Source: an uncultured Acidobacteriota bacterium | GTDB lineage: Bacteria > Acidobacteriota > Vicinamibacteria > Vicinamibacterales > UBA2999 | NCBI GenBank assembly: GCA_963741665.1 | Contig: CAVUIM010000003.1 | Span: 48,710-112,709 of the forward strand | Direction of reading: 5' to 3' | DNA: 64,000 nt | Part shown: positions 15,134 through 56,681 of the stretch, piece by piece | Numbering within the stretch: the stretch's first letter is position 1 | Layout: each line of letters starts with the position of its first letter | The notes under the pieces: generated by a model | Databases searched by the model: none | Told to the model about the DNA's origin: nothing | The model's input: the letters and a program-made list of their open reading frames with translations, nothing else | Position numbers and translations under genes: made by a program

Positions 15134-16324
15134 ATGGGACCACTGACCGGCGTCACCGTCGTCGACTTCACCCGCGTGCTCTCGGGACCGTATTGCACGA
15201 TGATCCTCGGCGACCTCGGCGCCCGGGTGATCAAGCTCGAACACCCCGAACGTGGCGACGACACGCGACGCTGGGGGCCGCCGTTCCTGGGCGATGAGAG
15301 CGCCTATTTCCTGAGCGTCAACCGCAACAAGGAGAGCGTGGCCGTCGACTTCAAGACGCCCGGCGGCCGGGCCCTGGTCGGCAAGCTCCTCGCCACCGCC
15401 GATGCCGTGGTCGAGAACTTCCGCCCCGGCACCCTCGACAGCGTCGGCCTCGACGCCGCCAGCGTGCGGGCCGCCCATCCGCGCCTCATCTACTGCTCGA
15501 TTTCCGGCTACGGGCAGACCGGCCCCCGGCGTAACGAGCCGGGCTACGACGCGGTGATGCAGGCCGAAGGCGGGTTGATGAGCATCACCGGCGCCGCCGA
15601 CGGCCCGCCGTACCGGCTCGGCGTCGCCATCGTCGACATCGTGTCGGGCATGTTCGCCGCGCAAGGCGTGCTCGCGGCGCTCGTCGCCCGCGAGAAGACC
15701 GGCCAGGGCCAGATCGTCGACCTCGGCATGCTCGACGCGACGACGGCGCTGCTCACCTACCAGGCCGGCAACTACTTCGCCACCGGCGCGGCGCCTGGAC
15801 GGCTCGGCAATCGCCATCCGACCATCGCTCCGTACGAGACGTTCGCGACCGCCGACGGCGACCTCGCGCTGGCGGTCGGCAACGACGGTCTGTGGCAGCG
15901 CTTCTGCCAGGCCGCCGAGCTGCCTGACCTGGCGGCCGATCCGCGCTTTGCGTCCAACGCCGGGCGCCTCGAACACTACCCGGTTCTGAAGGTACGGCTC
16001 GACGCCGCATTCGCGTCGCGCTCCCGCACCGACTGGACCGCCCGCCTGCTCGCCGCCGGCGTCCCGTGCGGCGCCGTGCGCACCGTGGAGGAAGTGTTCG
16101 CCGATCCGCAGACCGCCGCACGCGGCATGGTGCAGCGGGTGTCGCACGCGACGCTGGGGCAGGTCTCGGTCACCGGCGTGCCAGTGAAGCTGTCCGAGAC
16201 ACCGGGCAGCGTGCGGATCGGGCCACCGGTGCTGGGCCAACACACCGCGGCGGTGCTCGCCGAGCTGGGATACGATCAGGCCGCCGTCGATGCCCTCGCC
16301 TCGGCCGGCGCCATCCGCTCCTAG
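15134..16324 (+). CDS. CoA transferase, family III (CaiB/BaiF type)
   Basis: 396 aa from ATG 15134, in frame with ORF 14621..16324. Motifs: LTGVTVVDFTRVLSGPYCTMILGDLGA, NFRPG, GYD and HPTIAPYE. Confidence 0.85.
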   Translation: MGPLTGVTVVDFTRVLSGPYCTMILGDLGARVIKLEHPERGDDTRRWGPPFLGDESAYFLSVNRNKESVAVDFKTPGGRALVGKLLATADAVVENFRPGTLDSVGLDAASVRAAHPRLIYCSISGYGQTGPRRNEPGYDAVMQAEGGLMSITGAADGPPYRLGVAIVDIVSGMFAAQGVLAALVAREKTGQGQIVDLGMLDATTALLTYQAGNYFATGAAPGRLGNRHPTIAPYETFATADGDLALAVGNDGLWQRFCQAAELPDLAADPRFASNAGRLEHYPVLKVRLDAAFASRSRTDWTARLLAAGVPCGAVRTVEEVFADPQTAARGMVQRVSHATLGQVSVTGVPVKLSETPGSVRIGPPVLGQHTAAVLAELGYDQAAVDALASAGAIRS

Positions 16325-16331
16325 ACACGAA

Positions 16332-16760
16332 ATGGACATCGCCCTCATCCGCAAGTCGCTCCTCCAGGCCGTCGACGCGGCCAAGCGGGACGCCGTCGAG
16401 CGCCGCGCCCGCACCGACGAAGCAACCAAGCGCTACGAGAAGTTCCTGGAAGAGACGGCGACGCCGGCGTTCCGGTCGATGGCGTCGGCGCTGCGCGGCG
16501 AAGGGCTGCTCTTCGAGGTGATCACCCCGTTGGGCGGGGTCCGCCTGGTGCCCGAGCGAACCCGCGAGGACGGCATCGAGCTGACGCTCGACAGCACCGT
16601 CGATCCGCCGCAGCCGGTCATCCGGGTGATGCGCTCGCGCGGCAGCCGGGTGAACCAGCACGAGCGCCCGGTGGCCGGCGCGCTGCGCCTCGAAGGCCTC
16701 ACCGACGAGCACGTCGTGACGGCGCTGCTGGAAGAGCTGCGTCCCTGGCTCGAAAGATAG
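16332..16760 (+). CDS. hypothetical protein
   Basis: 142 aa from ATG 16332. Its composition looks like that of the recognisable genes around it, judged by eye. No motif recognised. It ends in a TAG that is fused to the heptamer repeat. Confidence 0.5.
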   Translation: MDIALIRKSLLQAVDAAKRDAVERRARTDEATKRYEKFLEETATPAFRSMASALRGEGLLFEVITPLGGVRLVPERTREDGIELTLDSTVDPPQPVIRVMRSRGSRVNQHERPVAGALRLEGLTDEHVVTALLEELRPWLER

Positions 16761-16880
16761 GGAACAGGGAACGGGGAACGGGGAGCAAGAACCTCTGACG
16801 AACTAGCGCCCGTCCGACAATGACGACAGCGTGGTAGCGGGACGCTCGCGCTTTCCCTGTTCCCTGTTCCCTGTTCCCTA
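16758..16880. repeat. inverted pair of TAG-anchored (GGGAACA)n heptamer arrays between convergent genes
   Basis: Left arm: TAGGGAACAGGGAACGGGGAACGGGG at 16758-16783. Right arm: CCCTGTTCCCTGTTCCCTGTTCCCTA at 16855-16880, which reads TAGGGAACAGGGAACAGGGAACAGGG on the minus strand. Each arm begins in the TAG stop of the gene it follows. The arms are mutually complementary and separated by about 70 nt. Confidence 0.85.
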
Positions 16881-19493
16881 CGCAAGTCTTTCTACAAAAG
16901 ACGTATCGATGCCCTCGCGGCGCAGCAGCCCGAGCAGCCCGACCTTGTCGTCGGCCTTGCGATAGGCCTCGCGGACGTCGACCGCGCCGCTCTGCACGAA
17001 CGCGACGAGCGCGTCGTTGAGCGGCGCCATCCCCAGCTTGCGGCCGCTGTCGATGGCCCGCGGCAGCTGGGCGATCTGCCCGTCGCTGACCAGCGCGGCG
17101 ACGGCGTTGGTGTTGAGGACCAGCTCGCGCGCGGCGAGGCGGCCGCCGCCGGCCTTGCGCAGCAGTACCTGAGCGACGACGCCGCGCAGATGCTCGGCCA
17201 GCGCGGCGCGTACGGTGCGGCGCTGTTCCGACGGACAGAGGTCGACCAGGCGCTCGAGGGCGGCAGTGGCCGACGCAGCGGTGACCGAGGCGAACACCAG
17301 CAGACCCGATCCGGCGGCGTCGAGCGCCACCTGCAGCACGTCGGGCGAACGCAGGTCCTCGATGATGAGGACGTCGGGGTTCTCGCGCAGCGCGGCGCGG
17401 GCCGCCGCCACCACTTCCGAGGCGCTGCCGCGCAGTTCGCGCTGGCTGATGAGCGATCCGCGGCTCTCGTGCACCAGGCGGATCTGGCCTTCGAGCGTGA
17501 TCACGTAGTCGTTACGCTGGCGGTTGATGAGGTCGACGTAGGCCGATACCAGCGTGGACTTGCCGCTGGCGCGCGGCCCGGTCACGATCACCAGCCCCTC
17601 GGGCTCCATCGCCAGCGCCTGGATCTCGCGCACCAGGCCGAGCTGCTCGGCTGAGGTGGCACGGGCCGAGATCATCCGCAGCAGCGCGCCGGGACCACGA
17701 TAGTCGCGGAAGGTCGTGATGCGGACACGGCCGACGTCCTGCAGGTCGCGGATCCACTCGGCGCTTTCCTTGTCGCGGGCCCCTTCGGGCGCCAGCTCGA
17801 GCACCGCCGCTTCGACGTCGCCGCTCGACAACGTGGCTTCGCCTTCGAGCAGGCGGATGTCGCCGTCGACGCGCACGGCGGGCCGGGCCTGCGTCGTGAG
17901 ATAGAGCGCCGAGGCGCCGCGCGCCGCGGCCAGACGCAGTAGCCGTTCGATGCCGCCGCCGCGGCCGTGGCCACGCGACGACTGGCTCGGGGCTCGCGCT
18001 GAATCGCGGGTCAGCGACAGCACGACGCCGGGCAGGGCGTCTGACGTGGCCTCGCCACGCGCCGCCACGGCGGCGTCGACCTCGTAGGACGGCGGCAGAC
18101 CTGGCAACGTGGGCTGCGGTTCGATCGGCCGGTAGACAGGTGGCTCGGACACGGTGGGCTCGACGGGCGGCATCGGCGCGCGGGGGGAGGCCGCGGCGGC
18201 CGGCACGTCGTATCGGGGGGCGTAGGGTTCGACCGCCGGGGCCTGGGGCGGCGCGGGCGTGGACTCGGGAACCAACGGCACGTTCGGCATTGTCGCCCAC
18301 GCGGGGGGCGCTGGTGCCGCCGGCGCTGCAGGCACGGGCGGTGGCGGCGCCACCGGGGCTGCCACGGCGGCCGGAATGAACTCGGGGACGGCGGTTTCGA
18401 CCGGCGCGGTGACGGGCTCCGGCGCGGGCGCGGGACTGATCGCGGGAGCAGCCTCCGCCTCGGCGTCCTGGCCGACGGGTTCCGGCAGCGGCTCCACCGG
18501 CGGCACGACGGCGGCGAGGATCGCGGCCTCGAACGAGGCCGGCGCGGCGGTCACGACCGACACGTCGACCGTGAACTCCAGCGGCGGCACGGCGCCGGTC
18601 TCGCCCAGCGTCTGCTCGAAGTCGATCGCCGGCACGTGCTCGATGGCCCACGCGTCGGCGATGCTGACCTCGGGTTCGAGCTCCACGACGGGCGGCGCGG
18701 CGTCGGCCACCGGCGATTCGTCGGGCGCCGCAATCGGTGCCGCCTCGATGGCCGGCGCCTCGACGAATGCGGGTTCAGCGAACGGCACCGGCTGGTCGGC
18801 CATCGTGACCGGCTCCACCGGCAGCGCGGCAGCGATCTCCAGCTCGGGTTCGACGACGACAGGTTCGACGACGACAGGTTCGACGACGGCAGGTTCGACG
18901 ACGACAGCTTCAACGACGACCGCTTCGACGACGACAGCTTCGACGACCGGCGCCTCGACGTCGTCGACCGGCGGCACGTCGACGGTCACCGCTGCGGCGG
19001 CGTCTTCGTTTGAGGCCGGCGCGGCGACGAGGTCGACGGCGGCGGCCGGCGCCACCGCCTCGGCGACCGGGACCTCGGCGACGAGCTCGGCGGCCGGCGC
19101 GGCGGCGACCGATTCGGCCGCCAACGGCGTGGCCGCATCGGCCGGCGCGTCGAGCACCGCGGCGGTCGCCGGGCGCACGCGGCGATGCCGGCGCACTTCA
19201 ATCCAGATGTCGTCGCCGCCGCGGGCCGCGACGACCGTGAACCGATCGGCGCCGCCGGCCGCGCTGGCCGCCAGCTCGTGTTCGACGGCGCCCATCTCGC
19301 GCAGGCCGCGCAGCGCCTCGGCCGACAGCAGCTGCGCGAGCAGCCCCTCCATCGCGCCGAGGCCGAGGCCCTGCCGCGACAGCTCCACCGTGCCGGTGGC
19401 TGCGACCACGTAGGGTTTCTCCCCCACGTGCAGCACCAGGGCATCGCCGTCACTGCGGACGATGGCGGTCAGGAGCGAATCGACGAGCGGCAT
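16878..19493 (-). CDS. PilT/GspE-family ATPase with duplicated PilT-N domain and a ~400-aa Pro/Ala/Val/Glu-rich linker
   Basis: The C-terminal ~350 aa carry Walker A GPRASGKST, Walker B-like DVLIIEDLR and PilT-like tail motifs. The first ~115 aa resemble a second PilT N-terminal domain. The middle is low complexity with VVVEA/VVVEP repeats. The ATG whose complement is at 19491-19493 is preferred over the GTG at 19529. Confidence 0.7.
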   Translation of the reverse strand: MPLVDSLLTAIVRSDGDALVLHVGEKPYVVAATGTVELSRQGLGLGAMEGLLAQLLSAEALRGLREMGAVEHELAASAAGGADRFTVVAARGGDDIWIEVRRHRRVRPATAAVLDAPADAATPLAAESVAAAPAAELVAEVPVAEAVAPAAAVDLVAAPASNEDAAAAVTVDVPPVDDVEAPVVEAVVVEAVVVEAVVVEPAVVEPVVVEPVVVEPELEIAAALPVEPVTMADQPVPFAEPAFVEAPAIEAAPIAAPDESPVADAAPPVVELEPEVSIADAWAIEHVPAIDFEQTLGETGAVPPLEFTVDVSVVTAAPASFEAAILAAVVPPVEPLPEPVGQDAEAEAAPAISPAPAPEPVTAPVETAVPEFIPAAVAAPVAPPPPVPAAPAAPAPPAWATMPNVPLVPESTPAPPQAPAVEPYAPRYDVPAAAASPRAPMPPVEPTVSEPPVYRPIEPQPTLPGLPPSYEVDAAVAARGEATSDALPGVVLSLTRDSARAPSQSSRGHGRGGGIERLLRLAAARGASALYLTTQARPAVRVDGDIRLLEGEATLSSGDVEAAVLELAPEGARDKESAEWIRDLQDVGRVRITTFRDYRGPGALLRMISARATSAEQLGLVREIQALAMEPEGLVIVTGPRASGKSTLVSAYVDLINRQRNDYVITLEGQIRLVHESRGSLISQRELRGSASEVVAAARAALRENPDVLIIEDLRSPDVLQVALDAAGSGLLVFASVTAASATAALERLVDLCPSEQRRTVRAALAEHLRGVVAQVLLRKAGGGRLAARELVLNTNAVAALVSDGQIAQLPRAIDSGRKLGMAPLNDALVAFVQSGAVDVREAYRKADDKVGLLGLLRREGIDTSFVERLA
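18847..18966. repeat. 15-nt tandem repeat (about 8 units, GGTTCGACGACGACA) inside the PilT-like gene
   Basis: The first two units and the fourth (18847-18861, 18862-18876, 18892-18906) are identical; the third (18877-18891) differs at one position. The later units are degenerate. The repeat encodes the (V/A)VVE(P/A) pentapeptide repeats on the minus strand. Confidence 0.85.
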
Positions 19494-19609
19494 CAGTATG
19501 GCAATCGGTCGGGTTGCCCGGGGGTGCACTCTCCCTCACGGGAAGCCCAGACCCAACCGTCCTGCATTGGAGTTTCGGACCCTCGGCACGTCAACGATAG
19601 CGACGATCG

Positions 19610-52227: not shown

Positions 52228-52236
52228 CTCGCGCCG

Positions 52237-53028
52237 CTACGTGCGCGTCGCGGTCACCAGCACGTGAGGGTCCGCCACGCTCAGCCGCGTGACCGTGCCG
52301 GCCTCGCGGGCGAACGCGATCCTCACCGACGGCGCGCCGGCTGGGAAGAACACCAGCTCGCCGGCGTGGAACAGGGTGCGGCGGTCGGCGCCCGGACGGG
52401 TGATGCCGAGCTGATCGCGATCGACGTCGACCACGAAGTGATCGCGCGGGCCGGCGCCGAAGCGGTAGCGGCCGACGACGGCGTCGCGATCGGCGGGAGC
52501 GAGCGGCTGGGTGGCGCTGCGAGTGTCGGCGCCGCCGAGGCTCTCCAGGTACTGCACGACCGCGGCGGAGTCGGCTCCTCCGGTGCGGGCGTGGGCGAGC
52601 AGCGTGATGCCGTGCGGTCCGAGCATTGCCTGCACCCCTGGCCGAGCCGTGACCAGCGCGCGCACGACGTCGAGCTGACCGAGCATGGCCGCCGAGAACA
52701 ACGTCGGTGGCGCCCCGTTGGCCAGCAGCAGCTCGGCGATCTCGCGCCGGCCGGTGTGCGCGGCGGCGCCGAGCGCCGTTTCCCAGTCGCCGAAGCCCCA
52801 GTCGACTGCCGCCCGGGCCAGCGCCGGCTGCCGCTCCACCAGCTCGCGGACGCGGGCGAGGTTGCCGTGCGACGCGCCGACGACCTCCTTGGCAAGGGCC
52901 GGGTCCTGCCGTGGCAGCCAGTCGGGGAATTCGGCCGGCGCCGACTGCGCGGTGACACCGGCCGGAAGCAACGTCGCCAGGCCGACACCGGGCAATTGGA
53001 CGAACGAGCGACGGGACAGATGACGCAT
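52237..53028 (-). CDS. ankyrin-repeat protein with Tat-type signal peptide
   Basis: 263 aa from the ATG whose complement is at 53026-53028. It has the twin-arginine motif SRRSFV. Ankyrin-like units include TALGAAAHTGRREIAELLLANGA and GQLDVVRALV. Confidence 0.6.
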   Translation of the reverse strand: MRHLSRRSFVQLPGVGLATLLPAGVTAQSAPAEFPDWLPRQDPALAKEVVGASHGNLARVRELVERQPALARAAVDWGFGDWETALGAAAHTGRREIAELLLANGAPPTLFSAAMLGQLDVVRALVTARPGVQAMLGPHGITLLAHARTGGADSAAVVQYLESLGGADTRSATQPLAPADRDAVVGRYRFGAGPRDHFVVDVDRDQLGITRPGADRRTLFHAGELVFFPAGAPSVRIAFAREAGTVTRLSVADPHVLVTATRT

Positions 53029-53160
53029 GCGGACGACCTCCAGGCACACGAGCGTGCTGCGGGCCATCGTGCGGGTCGCGCGTCCGGACCGCAAACGGAA
53101 ATCCGGCGAGGACGGGATGAGGCGGTAAGCCGTTGACAGCGCGTCGTTTGAGGGTGGACG

Positions 53161-54072
53161 TCAGGGCGTCTTCGCGCCCAGCAGATGCGCCCGCACGAGC
53201 CGTTCGGCCTCGCCCACGACCTCGTTCTCGAGGCCGGCGACGTCTCCGCCCGGACGCAGGAGCCGCTGCGCCGACAGGTGCACCTCGTCGCGGAGACGGA
53301 TGAAGTGCAGGATGAAGCGCAGGCCGGCGTCCTGACGCTGCAACTGGCCGATCACGATGTAGTCGGCCGGCACCTCCGTCGCCAGGGTCCTGAGGTTTCT
53401 GATCGCCCGCGGCTGGCGCAGCGCAGCGCTGTTGCCGACGACGCCGAGCCGATCGGGCGCCAGCGCCGTGAGCCGGGTGACGACGACGTCGGACAACCCG
53501 GTGACGAAGCCGTCGAGGGCCGGATCGCCGGTTTCGTTGTCGAAGATCGACACCGCGACGATGGCCGGCCGCGGCGGCGCATCGGCGCGCACCCAGATGA
53601 GCGCCAGCACCACGGCCGCCGCCATCGCGCTCAGCCATGGGCCGCGCCGGCGCCACCAGCCGCCGGGAGGCGTCGCGCCGGCGTCCGGCGGCGCGGCCGG
53701 CGCATCAGGCTCCGATGACGGGACCAGCAGCGCATCAGCCGCGGCGCCGCCGTTGGCCTCGGTGGTGACGGGCGCCAGGAACCGGAAGCCGCGTTTGGGC
53801 AGCGTCTGCACGAAGCGCGGGTTCTCGCCGCTGTCGCCCAGCGCCGTGCGCACCTGCGCGATGCAGTAGGCCAGGCCGCGGTCGTAGTCGACGTGGGTGT
53901 GCCCGCCCCAGATGGCGGCGCGCAGCTCCTCGCGGGTCACCACCTGGCCGGGGCGAGACAGCAGCACCGCCAGCGCCCGCGCCGGCTGCGGCTCGAGCCG
54001 CACCGCTCTCCCGTCACGCGTCAGCTCGAGGGACGCTGGATTGAAGCAGAACGTCCCGAACAGAATGGTCAT
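53161..54072 (-). CDS. membrane-bound OmpR/PhoB-type winged-helix regulator (CadC/ToxR-like)
   Basis: 303 aa. It has an N-terminal trans_reg_C-like domain (LTRDGRAVRLEPQPARALAVLL...VVTREEL...RFVQTLPKRGFRF), one TM helix (WLSAMAAAVVLALIWV) and a periplasmic C-terminal domain. There is no receiver domain. Confidence 0.7.
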   Translation of the reverse strand: MTILFGTFCFNPASLELTRDGRAVRLEPQPARALAVLLSRPGQVVTREELRAAIWGGHTHVDYDRGLAYCIAQVRTALGDSGENPRFVQTLPKRGFRFLAPVTTEANGGAAADALLVPSSEPDAPAAPPDAGATPPGGWWRRRGPWLSAMAAAVVLALIWVRADAPPRPAIVAVSIFDNETGDPALDGFVTGLSDVVVTRLTALAPDRLGVVGNSAALRQPRAIRNLRTLATEVPADYIVIGQLQRQDAGLRFILHFIRLRDEVHLSAQRLLRPGGDVAGLENEVVGEAERLVRAHLLGAKTP

Positions 54073-54078
54073 CGGCGG

Positions 54079-54173
54079 CCCTGTTCCCTGTTCCCTGTTC
54101 CCTGTTCCCTGTTCCCTGTTCCCTGTTCCCTGTTCCCTGTTCCCTGTTCCCTGTTCCCTGTTCCCTGTTCCCT
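54079..54173. repeat. 13.5 perfect tandem copies of the heptamer CCCTGTT (GGGAACA on the sense strand of both flanking genes)
   Basis: Units start every 7 nt from 54079 to 54163, with a partial unit running into the TAG stop (complement of 54172-54174) of the M24 peptidase gene. The array ends 6 nt from the regulator ATG (54072). I counted it directly from the sequence. Confidence 0.95.
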
Positions 54174-55488
54174 ACTTGATCACGAGCAACCGGTAATTGG
54201 CGGAGTGAACGAACTGAATCCCGTGCTCCATCAGCATCGCGTCGTCCTCGATCGGGATGCGCAGCTTCTTGCCGCCCCACTCGGGGATCGGGGTGTAGGC
54301 GAAGTACTCGAACGAGAACAGGTGCTGCTGGTAGAGCGTGAACGTGCTCTGGAACGGCTGCCACGTGGTGAGCGACGGGCCGATGTCGTGGCCGGTGTTG
54401 CCCACCGGGTGGAAGCCGTAGGTGACGTCGGTCTTGTCGTCGGCGTTGGGCTTGTTGAACTCGATCACCCCGTACCCGGCGGCGCGCAGCGCCGCGTCCA
54501 TGGCCGCCATCGTCTCCTTGCCGGTGCGGCCGGCCTTGATCGCCGGCTTGATGACGTCGCGGGCGGCGATCGCCTTGGCGAAGGCGGTGCGGATGCTGGC
54601 CGGCGGCTGGGTCTCGCCCGGTTTCAGCACGTAGGCGACGCGCTTGACGTCGGTGCCGAAGTTCATCAGCTGCACGCCCCAGTCGATCATCATCACGTCG
54701 CCGGGCTGCACGATCCGATCGGTGGACGTGGCGACGATGCCTTCAGGGCCGGTCACGTAGACCGACGGCATGTCGAACTCCGAGCCCAGGCCGCGGGCCA
54801 GCAGCTGGTCCTGCAGCCACCACGCCGCGTCCTCGAGCGTGGTCTTGCCCGGCGTGATCACTTCGTTCGAGAGCGCCCGTTCGGCCAGCTGGATGGCGAT
54901 GCCGGCGGCCTCGCCGAAGGCGACGATCTCGGACGCGACGCGGCGCGAGCGGAACTCGGACACCAGCCGCTCGGCGCTGGCCAGACGCGACGCGTACGGC
55001 TCGCCCAGGGTCTTGAGGAGCCGCTGGTGCATCGTCACCGACAGGCCGTCGGCCGGACCGATCTCCTCCGACATGTTGACGCCGATGCGTTTAGGGTCGC
55101 GGGCCTTGACCTCTTTGGCGAGATCGTCGGCCGAGCCGTACTTGTCGTAGGCGCCCGACTGGTTCAGCAGATAGCCGGAGGGCCCGAGCGCCAGCCGCTC
55201 GACGCGGTCGCCCTTCAGGAAGAACGCGTAGTAGCCGACGCCGGTGACGTAGCCGCGGCCCAGGTCCTCCCACAGCGGGTCGTAGTGGTTCTCCTTCACG
55301 GCGACGATCCAGGCGTCGAGGCCGGCGTTCTTCATCGCCACCGGCAGCACCTGCTCGAACTTGTCGAGCCGGATCTGACGCTGCATCTCCCACCGCCGTC
55401 GCGCTTCTTGCGCTTCGCCGCTCCCGGCCAGGAGCATCACCATCACCATCACCATCGCCACCGCCGCCGTCACCCGCCCACTCGTCAT
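54172..55488 (-). CDS. M24-family Xaa-Pro aminopeptidase-like protein, secreted
   Basis: 438 aa from the ATG whose complement is at 55486-55488. The signal peptide contains VAMVMVMVMLLAG. The C-terminal pita-bread region has DVMMIDWGV, HPVGNTGHDIGP and IEDDAML. Confidence 0.7.
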   Translation of the reverse strand: MTSGRVTAAVAMVMVMVMLLAGSGEAQEARRRWEMQRQIRLDKFEQVLPVAMKNAGLDAWIVAVKENHYDPLWEDLGRGYVTGVGYYAFFLKGDRVERLALGPSGYLLNQSGAYDKYGSADDLAKEVKARDPKRIGVNMSEEIGPADGLSVTMHQRLLKTLGEPYASRLASAERLVSEFRSRRVASEIVAFGEAAGIAIQLAERALSNEVITPGKTTLEDAAWWLQDQLLARGLGSEFDMPSVYVTGPEGIVATSTDRIVQPGDVMMIDWGVQLMNFGTDVKRVAYVLKPGETQPPASIRTAFAKAIAARDVIKPAIKAGRTGKETMAAMDAALRAAGYGVIEFNKPNADDKTDVTYGFHPVGNTGHDIGPSLTTWQPFQSTFTLYQQHLFSFEYFAYTPIPEWGGKKLRIPIEDDAMLMEHGIQFVHSANYRLLVIK

Positions 55489-55529
55489 CTCGTCCTCCGG
55501 TCCGACACGATGGCACACGACCGCGCCGT

Positions 55530-56681
55530 CTACAACAGCCGCGCCACCAGCCGCTTCAACCGCACCGGCGGTGCGTCGAGGGCCGCTACCCAGCGCCGCG
55601 CCCACGGCACCAGCCGCGTCAACCCGTAGACAACGGCGACGGTGCCGACCAGCGTCAGTTCGAACGGCAGCCGCCGCTTCAACGGAATGGCGACGCCGCC
55701 GTAGACGACCTCGACGTGCACCCAGTAGGCGAAGAGCGACGCCGCGCCGATGGTGGCCAGCGGCGCGCCGATCGCGTCGGGCAGGCGCCGGCGCAGGCAC
55801 CAGGCGAGCGGCAGCAGCGCGGCCACGACTGCGAGCCGCAGGAAGAAGAAGGTCGGCGACGCGCCCCAGAACGCCGACCGGCCCGGCGGGTAGATCGTCG
55901 GCTGGAACGACGCCCAGTAGGCCAGCGCGCCCACCGTCACCGCCAGCAGCGCCAGCGCCGCTTGCAGGCGCCGCTCGTCGCGGTCGTCGCGCACCGCGGC
56001 CAGCGCGGCGCCGGCGGCCACCCCGGCCAAGACGAACGCGCTCCACGGCACCAGGGTGAAGTTGGTGTGTGGCGGCGTCGGCCGCCAGTACCACTGCAGC
56101 GGCCCCGGCAGCACGTCGACCCACGCGGCGGTCCGGATGAGCGGCGCCGCCATGGCCAGCGCCACGGTCGCGATGGACGCCGCGGCTACTCGCCCGGTAG
56201 GGCCGGCGCCGAGCCCCCACACACCGGCCGCGACGATCAAGGCCGGCCCCATCACGTTGAGGATGTCGACCTTCAGGAAGCCGATCGGCGCGCCCCAGCC
56301 GAGCGCCAGCGCCTGGGCCCGAAACACGAAGGCCAGCCCGAAGATCAGCGCGCCGCGCCGGGCCAGCGCCAGGGTCGCGTCGAGCCGCGACAGGCCGTGC
56401 CGCAGCTTCGACGCGCCCGACAAGGCCGTACCGAGTCCGGCCAGGAACAGGAACGCCGGCGCCGCCAGTCCGCCGGCGAAATTGGCCCAGTAGAACGCCG
56501 TGCGATCGCGGTCGGCCTCGCGCGTCCAGGCGTCGACGACGTGAGAGAGCACCATCAGCACCACGGCGACACCGCGGGCCCAGTCGAGCCAGATCTGACG
56601 GGTGGTTGCTGGCGCCCGATCGCTCAGGGCACGACCTCGAACGACGTCGTCAGCGGGATGTCCTGGCGCAGGCTGTGCCAC
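55530..56681 (-). CDS. polytopic membrane protein, DUF1624 / heparan-alpha-glucosaminide N-acetyltransferase-like
   Basis: 383-aa ORF. It has the N-terminal WLDWARGVAVVLMVLSH motif and about 9-10 hydrophobic segments. As drawn, the start overlaps the OsmC gene by 58 nt, and I found no alternative canonical start. Confidence 0.5.
   Translation of the reverse strand: MAQPAPGHPADDVVRGRALSDRAPATTRQIWLDWARGVAVVLMVLSHVVDAWTREADRDRTAFYWANFAGGLAAPAFLFLAGLGTALSGASKLRHGLSRLDATLALARRGALIFGLAFVFRAQALALGWGAPIGFLKVDILNVMGPALIVAAGVWGLGAGPTGRVAAASIATVALAMAAPLIRTAAWVDVLPGPLQWYWRPTPPHTNFTLVPWSAFVLAGVAAGAALAAVRDDRDERRLQAALALLAVTVGALAYWASFQPTIYPPGRSAFWGASPTFFFLRLAVVAALLPLAWCLRRRLPDAIGAPLATIGAASLFAYWVHVEVVYGGVAIPLKRRLPFELTLVGTVAVVYGLTRLVPWARRWVAALDAPPVRLKRLVARLL

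Follow-up and report, generated by a model that had tools for sequence, protein, structure and literature searches.

A (GGGAACA)13 array between a peptidase gene and a CadC-like regulator gene: probable solo arm of a dispersed, stop-anchored heptamer-repeat family in Vicinamibacterales

Tandem heptanucleotide repeats of cyanobacteria (Calothrix and Anabaena) were reportedly described by Mazel et al. in 1990 as short tandemly repeated repetitive (STRR) sequences. Repetitive extragenic palindromic sequences (REPs) have roles in mRNA stabilisation and differential operon expression, and Liang, Rudd and Deutscher are said to have placed them near stop codons in 2015. Di Nocera et al. (2013) described REPs whose ends often contribute a TAG stop and which lie near the 3′ end of the upstream open reading frame (ORF), often within 20 bp; in-frame intragenic insertions also occur (PMC3733652). 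The closest described kind is the class of Rehm et al. (2015), with (GGGAATC)n in Xanthomonas and GGGGAYT in Nostoc PCC 7120 (PMC4692102); X. campestris pv. campestris alone holds 186 copies. Those arrays have 2–26 units with a mode of 4, are intergenic in 89–93% of cases in two xanthomonads and 68% in Nostoc, and follow a stop codon by 0–50 nt or overlap it, on the coding strand; 70 copies stand in convergent pairs, positions are conserved across species and lengths vary, G-quadruplexes (G4s) are formed in vitro, and the function is unresolved (PMC4692102). In this study, a perfect GGGAACA array was analyzed that fills the gap between an M24 peptidase gene and a CadC-like regulator gene in a 64-kb stretch of DNA (the window; 64,000 nucleotides, contig CAVUIM010000003.1 of assembly GCA_963741665.1) from an uncultured Vicinamibacterales bacterium of the Acidobacteriota; the source genome was covered within this window. 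With a probability of roughly 0.55, the array is a member of a dispersed, stop-anchored heptamer family that was left as a solo arm after the loss of its partner and has a post-transcriptional role, and it is not an operator. The family comprises intergenic elements of Vicinamibacterales that start at or just after stop codons and usually consist of two inverted arms folding into a long hairpin.

The array and its surroundings contain the following features.
54172..55488, minus strand: gene for a 438-aa M24 metallopeptidase (PF00557) with a signal-peptide-like N-terminus, upstream of the regulator gene (Pfam)
54172..54174, minus strand: TAG stop of the M24 peptidase gene, the A and G of which open the array (sequence)
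54079..54173, minus strand: perfect GGGAACA array of 13 full units and a terminal GGG (Tandem Repeats Finder, sequence, comparison with the related locus L213)
54073..54082, minus strand: last A-GGG of the array, weakly Shine-Dalgarno-like, and the 6-nt spacer CCGCCG ahead of the regulator ATG
53161..54072, minus strand: gene for a 303-aa CadC-like one-component regulator (Pfam, homologues, alignment)

Tandem Repeats Finder reported 54079..54173 as a repeat of period 7 with 13.6 copies, 100% matches, zero indels and a score of 190. Both neighbouring genes have the minus strand as their sense strand; on it, the gap reads AAG-TAG-GGAACAG...(13 full GGGAACA)...GGG-CCGCCG-ATG, and the composition of the array is G42 A40 C13 T0, with 14 GGG runs. 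The two-unit 14-mer GGGAACAGGGAACA matched the window 15 times against 0.00 expected from 100 dinucleotide shuffles. Thirteen identical units that begin in the TAG and end 6 nt before the regulator ATG had also been read in a first-pass annotation of this DNA, and its anatomy agrees with the repeat search and the sequence. No sigma-70-like promoter or intrinsic terminator was detected in 52900..56400. The further claim that no conventional promoter, spacer or Shine-Dalgarno sequence can fit outside the repeat needs one correction: a weak Shine-Dalgarno-like element, the terminal A-GGG (54079..54082), lies within the repeat 6 nt 5′ of the ATG. Its G-tract, the last of the array, occupies −9..−7, the expected Shine-Dalgarno position; for comparison, the peptidase gene carries GGAGG 6 nt ahead of its own ATG. 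The regulator start itself (54070..54072) is well placed, since M1 is nearly invariant across 33 homologues. Rfam gave zero matches at gathering thresholds, and the only sub-threshold, miRNA-like matches fell on a long hairpin at 16.7 kb. The regulator ATG lies 102 nt from the peptidase TAG (54072–54174) and in frame with it, which is probably a coincidence. With T absent from the array, none of the three frames meets a stop codon there; a read-through peptidase–regulator fusion was nevertheless rejected as topologically senseless, because an exported peptidase would be joined to a cytoplasmic winged helix-turn-helix (wHTH) domain.

The peptidase-to-regulator gap was collected from 30 loci. 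In 14 more distant orthologues, the gap measures −1 to 25 nt (e.g., TAGTG or TAGGAGGCGACGTG) and forms a tight operon junction with its own Shine-Dalgarno element. Nine closer relatives (L120, L130, L131, L133, L211, L213, L214, L216, and L218) have gaps of 120–190 nt built from a G-rich heptamer arm, a core of roughly 55–75 nt and a complementary C-rich arm that stops 0–22 nt before the start codon. The units in these gaps are lineage-specific, namely, GCGGCTA, GGGGACC, GGGACTG, GGGGCTA/CCCCAGT, and GGGAACA, and the orthologous peptidase stop in L120 and L130 is TGA at the same VIK* position. For seven of these relatives, the gap is predicted to fold at −57 to −98 kcal/mol. That of the window reaches only −5.2 kcal/mol (z = +2.0), weaker than its own shuffles, and shows no hairpin of the kind that marks REPs and hairpin-forming REP doublets (REPINs).

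The closest comparison was provided by L213, a 3.2-kb soil metagenome contig. Its gap reads AAG-TAG-(GGGAACA)13-GGGG-core-CGTTCCCTGTTCCCCGTTCCCTGTTCCC-GGCCGCCG-ATG-ACC-ATT-CTG-TTC, and the window counterpart reads AAG-TAG-(GGGAACA)13-GGG-CCGCCG-ATG-ACC-ATT-CTG-TTC. The L213 core has 69 nt, ends in CACGCGAAGCGTGACAAGAGCACTACC and is followed by a 4-unit C-rich arm, CGTTCCC TGTTCCC CGTTCCC TGTTCCC. The flank GCCGCCGATG is common to both and is placed after the C-rich arm in L213. Neither the core nor the C-rich arm is present in the window, a difference of about 107 nt, and its array is therefore interpreted as a solo G-rich arm. The paired state is taken as ancestral because it is common to all nine relatives, so the direction of change (deletion here versus insertion elsewhere) is a matter of parsimony over these nine. 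Both loci hold 13 perfect GGGAACA units with zero substitutions, as read from the assemblies, while the flanking genes are 81–92% identical in nucleotide sequence and 64–79% identical at 4-fold degenerate sites. A recent local transfer that would explain the equal number was not supported, since the 3′ end of the peptidase gene is highly conserved against all relatives (e.g., 95% against L120 over 300 nt). Moreover, the interval between the next two genes holds another GGGAACA pair in L213 and pairs in L120 and L130 as well. In this interval, where the 266-aa-type gene and the M14 peptidase gene converge, the pair elements of L213, L120 and L130 measure 120–160 nt, and the window has 9 nt (52228–52236, GTAG-CGGCGCGAG-CTAC) with both stops being TAG; these 9 nt could be the footprint of an element loss.

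Two further observations were made at the same gap. In L142, L147, and L150, it is 460–540 nt long and contains an apparent antisense ORF of ~145 aa with hydrophobic character in place of the heptamer element. Short-read metagenome contigs of close relatives (L212:1–45, L215:1–38, and L217:1–45) start within the C-rich arm upstream of the regulator gene, which indicates that the arrays break assemblies and that the family is probably under-represented in short-read metagenome-assembled genomes (MAGs).

The same heptamer also occurs elsewhere in the window, a context that, like the clade-wide family, the first-pass annotation had missed. Three GGGAACA arrays were found there, all beginning in a TAG stop on the sense strand, and two of them form a convergent inverted pair at 16759..16880 with the following parts.
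16759..16784, plus strand: left G-rich arm, GGGAACA GGGAACG GGGAACG GGGAG, from the TAG stop of a 156-aa ORF (16290..16760)
16785..16852, no strand: 68-nt core (loop) between the arms, holding AAGAAC... and GACAGCGTGGTAGCG
16853..16879, minus strand: right G-rich arm, TAG GGAACAG x3 GGAAAG, from the TAG stop of a PilT/T2SSE-like ATPase gene (16878..19529)

This pair folds as a hairpin of −79.6 kcal/mol in the plus-strand transcript and −71.6 kcal/mol in the minus-strand transcript, and the hairpin outcompetes G4s in the energy model. The motifs AAGAAC... and GACAGCGTGGTAGCG of its core are loosely common to the cores of the pair elements in L120, L130, and L213. Separately, the ATPase gene contains a 15-nt tandem repeat (6.7–7.5 copies, 18847–18960) within an N-terminal extension, where it encodes 5-aa repeats of the VVEAV/VVEPV type.

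The extent of the family was measured in 493 kb of non-redundant DNA, consisting of the window and related loci, in which tandem arrays of at least three copies were counted. The 146 arrays included 75 with period 7 and 13 with period 14, and the shuffled control gave 1. An inverted partner was present within 220 nt for 42 of the 75 period-7 arrays (56%), and only 24 (32%) had the four or more G3 or C3 runs that make an array G4-capable. The commonest length was 4 units, both for G3-containing units (16/27) and for G3-free units (13/48). With genes called by an ORF heuristic filtered on third-position GC content (GC3), arms were found to abut stop codons of all three kinds, 0–30 nt away, and a manual count in the related loci showed more G than C on the sense strand of the stop-adjoining arm 17 times out of 21. 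Two L120 elements can be aligned in opposite orientation along their full ~135 nt, which weakly points to dispersal and not only to local slippage. Short motifs, AAGAAC near the G-rich arm and GACARCGTGRT or CACGCGAAGCGTGACAAG near the C-rich arm, recur in cores of non-orthologous loci and different genomes despite differing arms (L120:5899–5961, L120:7891–7949, window 16785–16852, L130:7874–7938, L213:162–230, and L213:2150–2205), and this core similarity weakly suggests dispersal of the elements. Among 52 GC3-filtered ORFs of the window, from crude calls, TAG served as the stop 19 times, TGA 29 times and TAA 4 times; this seemingly high amber share for a genome of 70.7% GC may be connected with repeat arms adjoining or providing stops.

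In an exact scan for three GGGAACA units with one genome per species, at least 119 loci were matched. Among the matches listed, most belong to Nostocales and other cyanobacteria, with Acidobacteriaceae, Gemmatimonadales and a few others also represented; the arrays in high-GC matches start at or just after stop codons, often upstream of a separate canonical terminator, and the number of G-tracts peaks at 4, with 12 or more in 6/130. In Gemmatimonadales and Acidobacteriaceae MAGs (L002:2880–3040, L066 minus strand, L094, and L065), mosaic arrays start at the stop codon and consist of blocks of variant purine-rich heptamers (GGGAAGA, GGGAACG, GAGATCA, GAGGTCA, and GGGACAC). A canonical terminator hairpin, distinct from the array, comes after it in L094 and L116. 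Inverted heptamer pairs were also seen inside regulator-family genes at 12 sister-clade loci (L165, L166, L170, L177, L179, L181, L182, L184, L190, L195, L205, and L206), where (CGTTCGA)n..(GAACGAC)n lies in frame within the coding sequence of the linker that connects wHTH and membrane segment (e.g., L179:1182–1300); the pair is translated as 7-aa repeats (RSTFDVR.. / ERRTEND..), and the ORF remains open.

On this basis, a history and a mode of action can be proposed for the solo arm. The peptidase–regulator junction would originally have been a tight operon junction of 0–25 nt, which a hairpin element invaded in the ancestor of the subclade. In the GGGAACA lineage, the G-rich arm would have grown to 13 units, and the core and C-rich arm (about 107 nt) would then have been deleted in the source genome. 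The remaining array is probably transcribed within a peptidase–regulator mRNA, since there is no room for a separate promoter outside it; the missing promoter and terminator matches and the tight junction in distant orthologues point the same way. As a post-transcriptional spacer, 86% purine and U-free, it would separate the regulator start from the upstream stop and leave only the weak AGGG as a ribosome-binding element. G4s at ribosome-binding sites repress expression, according to work cited in PMC4692102. Judging from this and from the model energies, a G4 could sequester the AGGG and keep translation of the membrane regulator low. By analogy with REPs, the array may in addition shield the peptidase message upstream of it against 3′ exonucleases. 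The elements appear to behave like REPs and REPINs; mobility by a REP-associated tyrosine transposase (RAYT) is putative.

Several points weigh against this proposal. The solo arm may be a functionless relic. The agreement at 13 units despite 21–36% divergence at 4-fold sites is not accounted for by the favoured history, and free slippage, neutral decay and local transfer each appear to fit it poorly as well. The cores share only a modest 51% mean column identity across genomes, apart from short motifs such as GACARCGTGRT. With regard to REP/REPIN-type mobility, the arms are not individually palindromic, and a GTAG tag (AAGTAGGG in the window array and L213; GTAG also in L130 and the window pair) stands at only about 5/32 outer arm ends, the others abutting TGA or TAA. 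Moreover, no RAYT-like HUH motif (MPNHVH-type) was found in 1.4 Mb of loci, a result that is uninformative for a single-copy gene. The GTAG tag was rejected as a family signature because it is inconsistent across arm ends. An effect as a CsrA sponge was also considered, as the array's ACAGGGA resembles the CsrA core ACARGGA, and it was set aside because sister lineages have GGA-free units (GCGGCTA, ATGGCTG) at equivalent sites.

G4 formation was one of three readings offered by the first-pass annotation. The motif fits, with 14 G3 tracts and 4-nt loops, and the model energy is favourable: ViennaRNA gave −30.2 kcal/mol for the window array with G4s allowed (three tandem G4s) and −5.2 kcal/mol without them, and the model energy per (GGGAACA)3GGG is −8.36 kcal/mol, equal to that of the Xanthomonas (GGGAAUC)3GGG. 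The analogous DNA (GGGAATC)3GGG has K+-dependent G4 signatures in circular dichroism, and its T1/2 in 100 mM K+ is 50 °C (PMC4692102). As a function, however, G4 formation is plausible only. The corresponding proposal is a dedicated switch, in which the 14 tracts were selected for K+-dependent G4s in the mRNA or non-template DNA and govern transcription read-through or regulator translation. Besides the canonical G3N4 periodicity, the position of the final tract in the Shine-Dalgarno place and the conservation of 13 perfect units in L213 speak for it, and with the C-rich arm lost, a G4 is the sole stable fold remaining in the model. Yet G4 formation cannot be the unifying principle of the repeats in the clade, because only 24/75 arrays are capable of it, the 4-unit mode is shared by G-free units, and hairpins occupy the orthologous site; sister lineages carry GCGGCTA, ATGGCTG, and GCGGATT at equivalent sites, and wherever a C-rich arm exists the hairpin beats the G4 in the model. 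A three-layer G4 with 4-nt loops is also only moderately stable. Bacterial RNA G4s are reportedly largely unfolded or counter-selected (Guo and Bartel, 2016), which likewise counts against a dedicated switch, and we consider it unlikely. About the same low standing is given to a neutral relic, in which a selfish repeat has left behind a decaying or slippage-homogenised remnant without a role, tolerated since translation of the regulator goes on. Such a remnant would agree with the loss of the core and C-rich arm, with the missing pair element between the next two genes (present in L213, L120, and L130), with the family's resemblance to dispersed selfish DNA and with the Xanthomonas class, for which no function was found (PMC4692102). 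The zero substitutions and equal unit number in two genomes 21–36% diverged at 4-fold sites, and the exact abutment of the array on the stop codon and the start region, weigh against a relic, which is still a serious alternative.

The other two readings put forward earlier, a contingency locus and an operator, fared worse. Frequent gain or loss of 7-nt units that tunes or switches regulator expression would find a good slippage substrate in 13 perfect units, and a transcribed heptamer repeat in a 5′ untranslated region of Haemophilus influenzae sets expression inversely to its length (PMC12721329); array lengths also differ among Xanthomonas species (PMC4692102). Nevertheless, window and L213 are identical at 13 units, as far as two genomes and their assemblies go, and ten independent assemblies of the L120 species showed single-nucleotide polymorphisms and one 1-nt indel with unit number unchanged, in arrays of only 3–4 units. 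The family, moreover, follows housekeeping-type genes of all kinds, and phase variation was judged unlikely for their class by Rehm et al. (PMC4692102). A contingency locus is accordingly disfavoured as very improbable. An array of tandem sites through which the adjacent OmpR/CadC-type winged-helix regulator controls its own gene was rejected and has hardly any probability left. Adjacency to the regulator gene and the match of three units (21 bp) to two helical turns had suggested it, but GGGAACA arrays also follow the unrelated PilT-like ATPase gene and the 156-aa ORF 37 kb away, and L213 has them at its second site as well. Orthologues whose recognition-helix region is invariant (R65–C70, R75, A77, and L78 in the alignment) have GCGGCTA, GGGGACC, or CCCCAGT arrays or merely 0–25 nt upstream, and the array lies in a probably transcribed intercistronic gap, not in a promoter.

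A bolder idea concerns how the family is maintained. An undescribed trans-acting system may keep up the heptamer hairpins of Vicinamibacterales, rewriting the unit in both arms lineage by lineage and fixing array length; this is a speculative and rather improbable suggestion. If true, it would explain 13 perfect units in two genomes 21–36% diverged at 4-fold sites, and a shared process, templated or protein-measured, would underlie the 7-nt periodicity of Acidobacteriota, Gemmatimonadota, Xanthomonas, and cyanobacteria in place of polymerase slippage.

The genes around the array belong to a conserved operon-like row, PadR / amidohydrolase / OsmC / acyltransferase / M24 / regulator / 266–276-aa gene / convergent M14. 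The regulator has an N-terminal Trans_reg_C wHTH domain (PF00486, E = 1e-13), a hydrophobic segment and a C-terminal 'TolB-like' region, and its homologues carry Vicinamibacterales (Acidobacteriota) annotation. In the N-terminus of the M24 peptidase gene, a (CATCAC)4.3 repeat on the plus strand (55435–55460) encodes VMVMVM in the signal-peptide-like region.

Literature searches found no earlier description of the heptamer class in Acidobacteriota, and a search for the string GGGAACA returned only primers and noise. The loci collected here offer a natural comparison, as the orthologous gap is empty, filled by a hairpin with differing units, or occupied by a solo G-rich arm, and the conservation of 13 units hints at a constraint on array length. 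For annotation, caution is advised: such arrays should not be read as locus-specific operators or phase-variation tracts.

As is proposed for the window array, the (ATCTTTC)n tract of H. influenzae hmw1A, also a heptamer array, is transcribed immediately ahead of a gene and exerts its effect through the RNA; however, that tract is demonstrably phase-variable, with at least 11 units in variable number, and its pairing with a G-rich partner creates an RNase III substrate (PMC12721329), whereas the window array has the same unit number in two species and has lost its pairing partner. The TAACTGA repeats of Beggiatoaceae, cyanobacteria, and Bacteroidetes (MacGregor 2015) are heptamers that also end a few nt before start codons and for which a post-transcriptional role was proposed; they differ in their AT-rich unit, which permits no G4, in being anchored to start rather than stop codons, and in the rarity of indirect (inverted) repeats, with one set among about 170 in the BOGUAY genome (PMC4679880).

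The cyanobacterial STRR sequences resemble the present family as tandem 7-nt repeats dispersed in noncoding DNA and, like the heptamers here, have no known function. The GGGAACA unit itself forms arrays of 3–59 units in many Nostocales genomes among the matches listed. Their hosts, however, have low GC contents, and few inverted pairs are reported for Nostoc. With REPs (GTAG-tagged ones included), bacterial interspersed mosaic elements (BIMEs) and REPINs, the family shares dispersed, hairpin-forming intergenic repeats between unidirectional or convergent genes, close to where the upstream ORF ends (Di Nocera et al. 2013, PMC3733652; Bertels and Rainey 2011, PMC3116915). Dimers with 20–100-bp spacers, lineage-specific sequence families and termini that supply TAG are common to REPs/REPINs and the present elements. 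In contrast to REPs and REPINs, the arms are tandem heptamers and not individually palindromic 20–40-bp units, GTAG is inconsistent, no RAYT transposase is linked, and the window copy has no hairpin.

Finally, the family is comparable with the class of Rehm et al. in most respects. The window has 13.6 tandem GGGNNNN units and dispersed copies (three arrays in the window and two loci in L213), and the arrays overlap stops, have the coding strand as their G-rich strand, occur in convergent pairs, show no link to gene function and are G4-capable. Perfect arrays reaching 14–26 units, a mode of 4, and sites that relatives share despite differing array lengths are further points in common. The differences are that the host phylum is Acidobacteriota, that the unit is GGGAACA, and that G4 formation here is a model energy alone; most heptamer families in Vicinamibacterales have no G-runs, orthologous sites change their unit from one lineage to the next, and the window copy is a solo arm with its partner deleted. 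As most arrays of the clade are G4-incapable and the 4-unit mode is common nonetheless, a G4-centred explanation of the class is weakened. With these differences, the G-rich, stop-anchored heptamer class known from Xanthomonas and Nostoc is now extended to Acidobacteriota.

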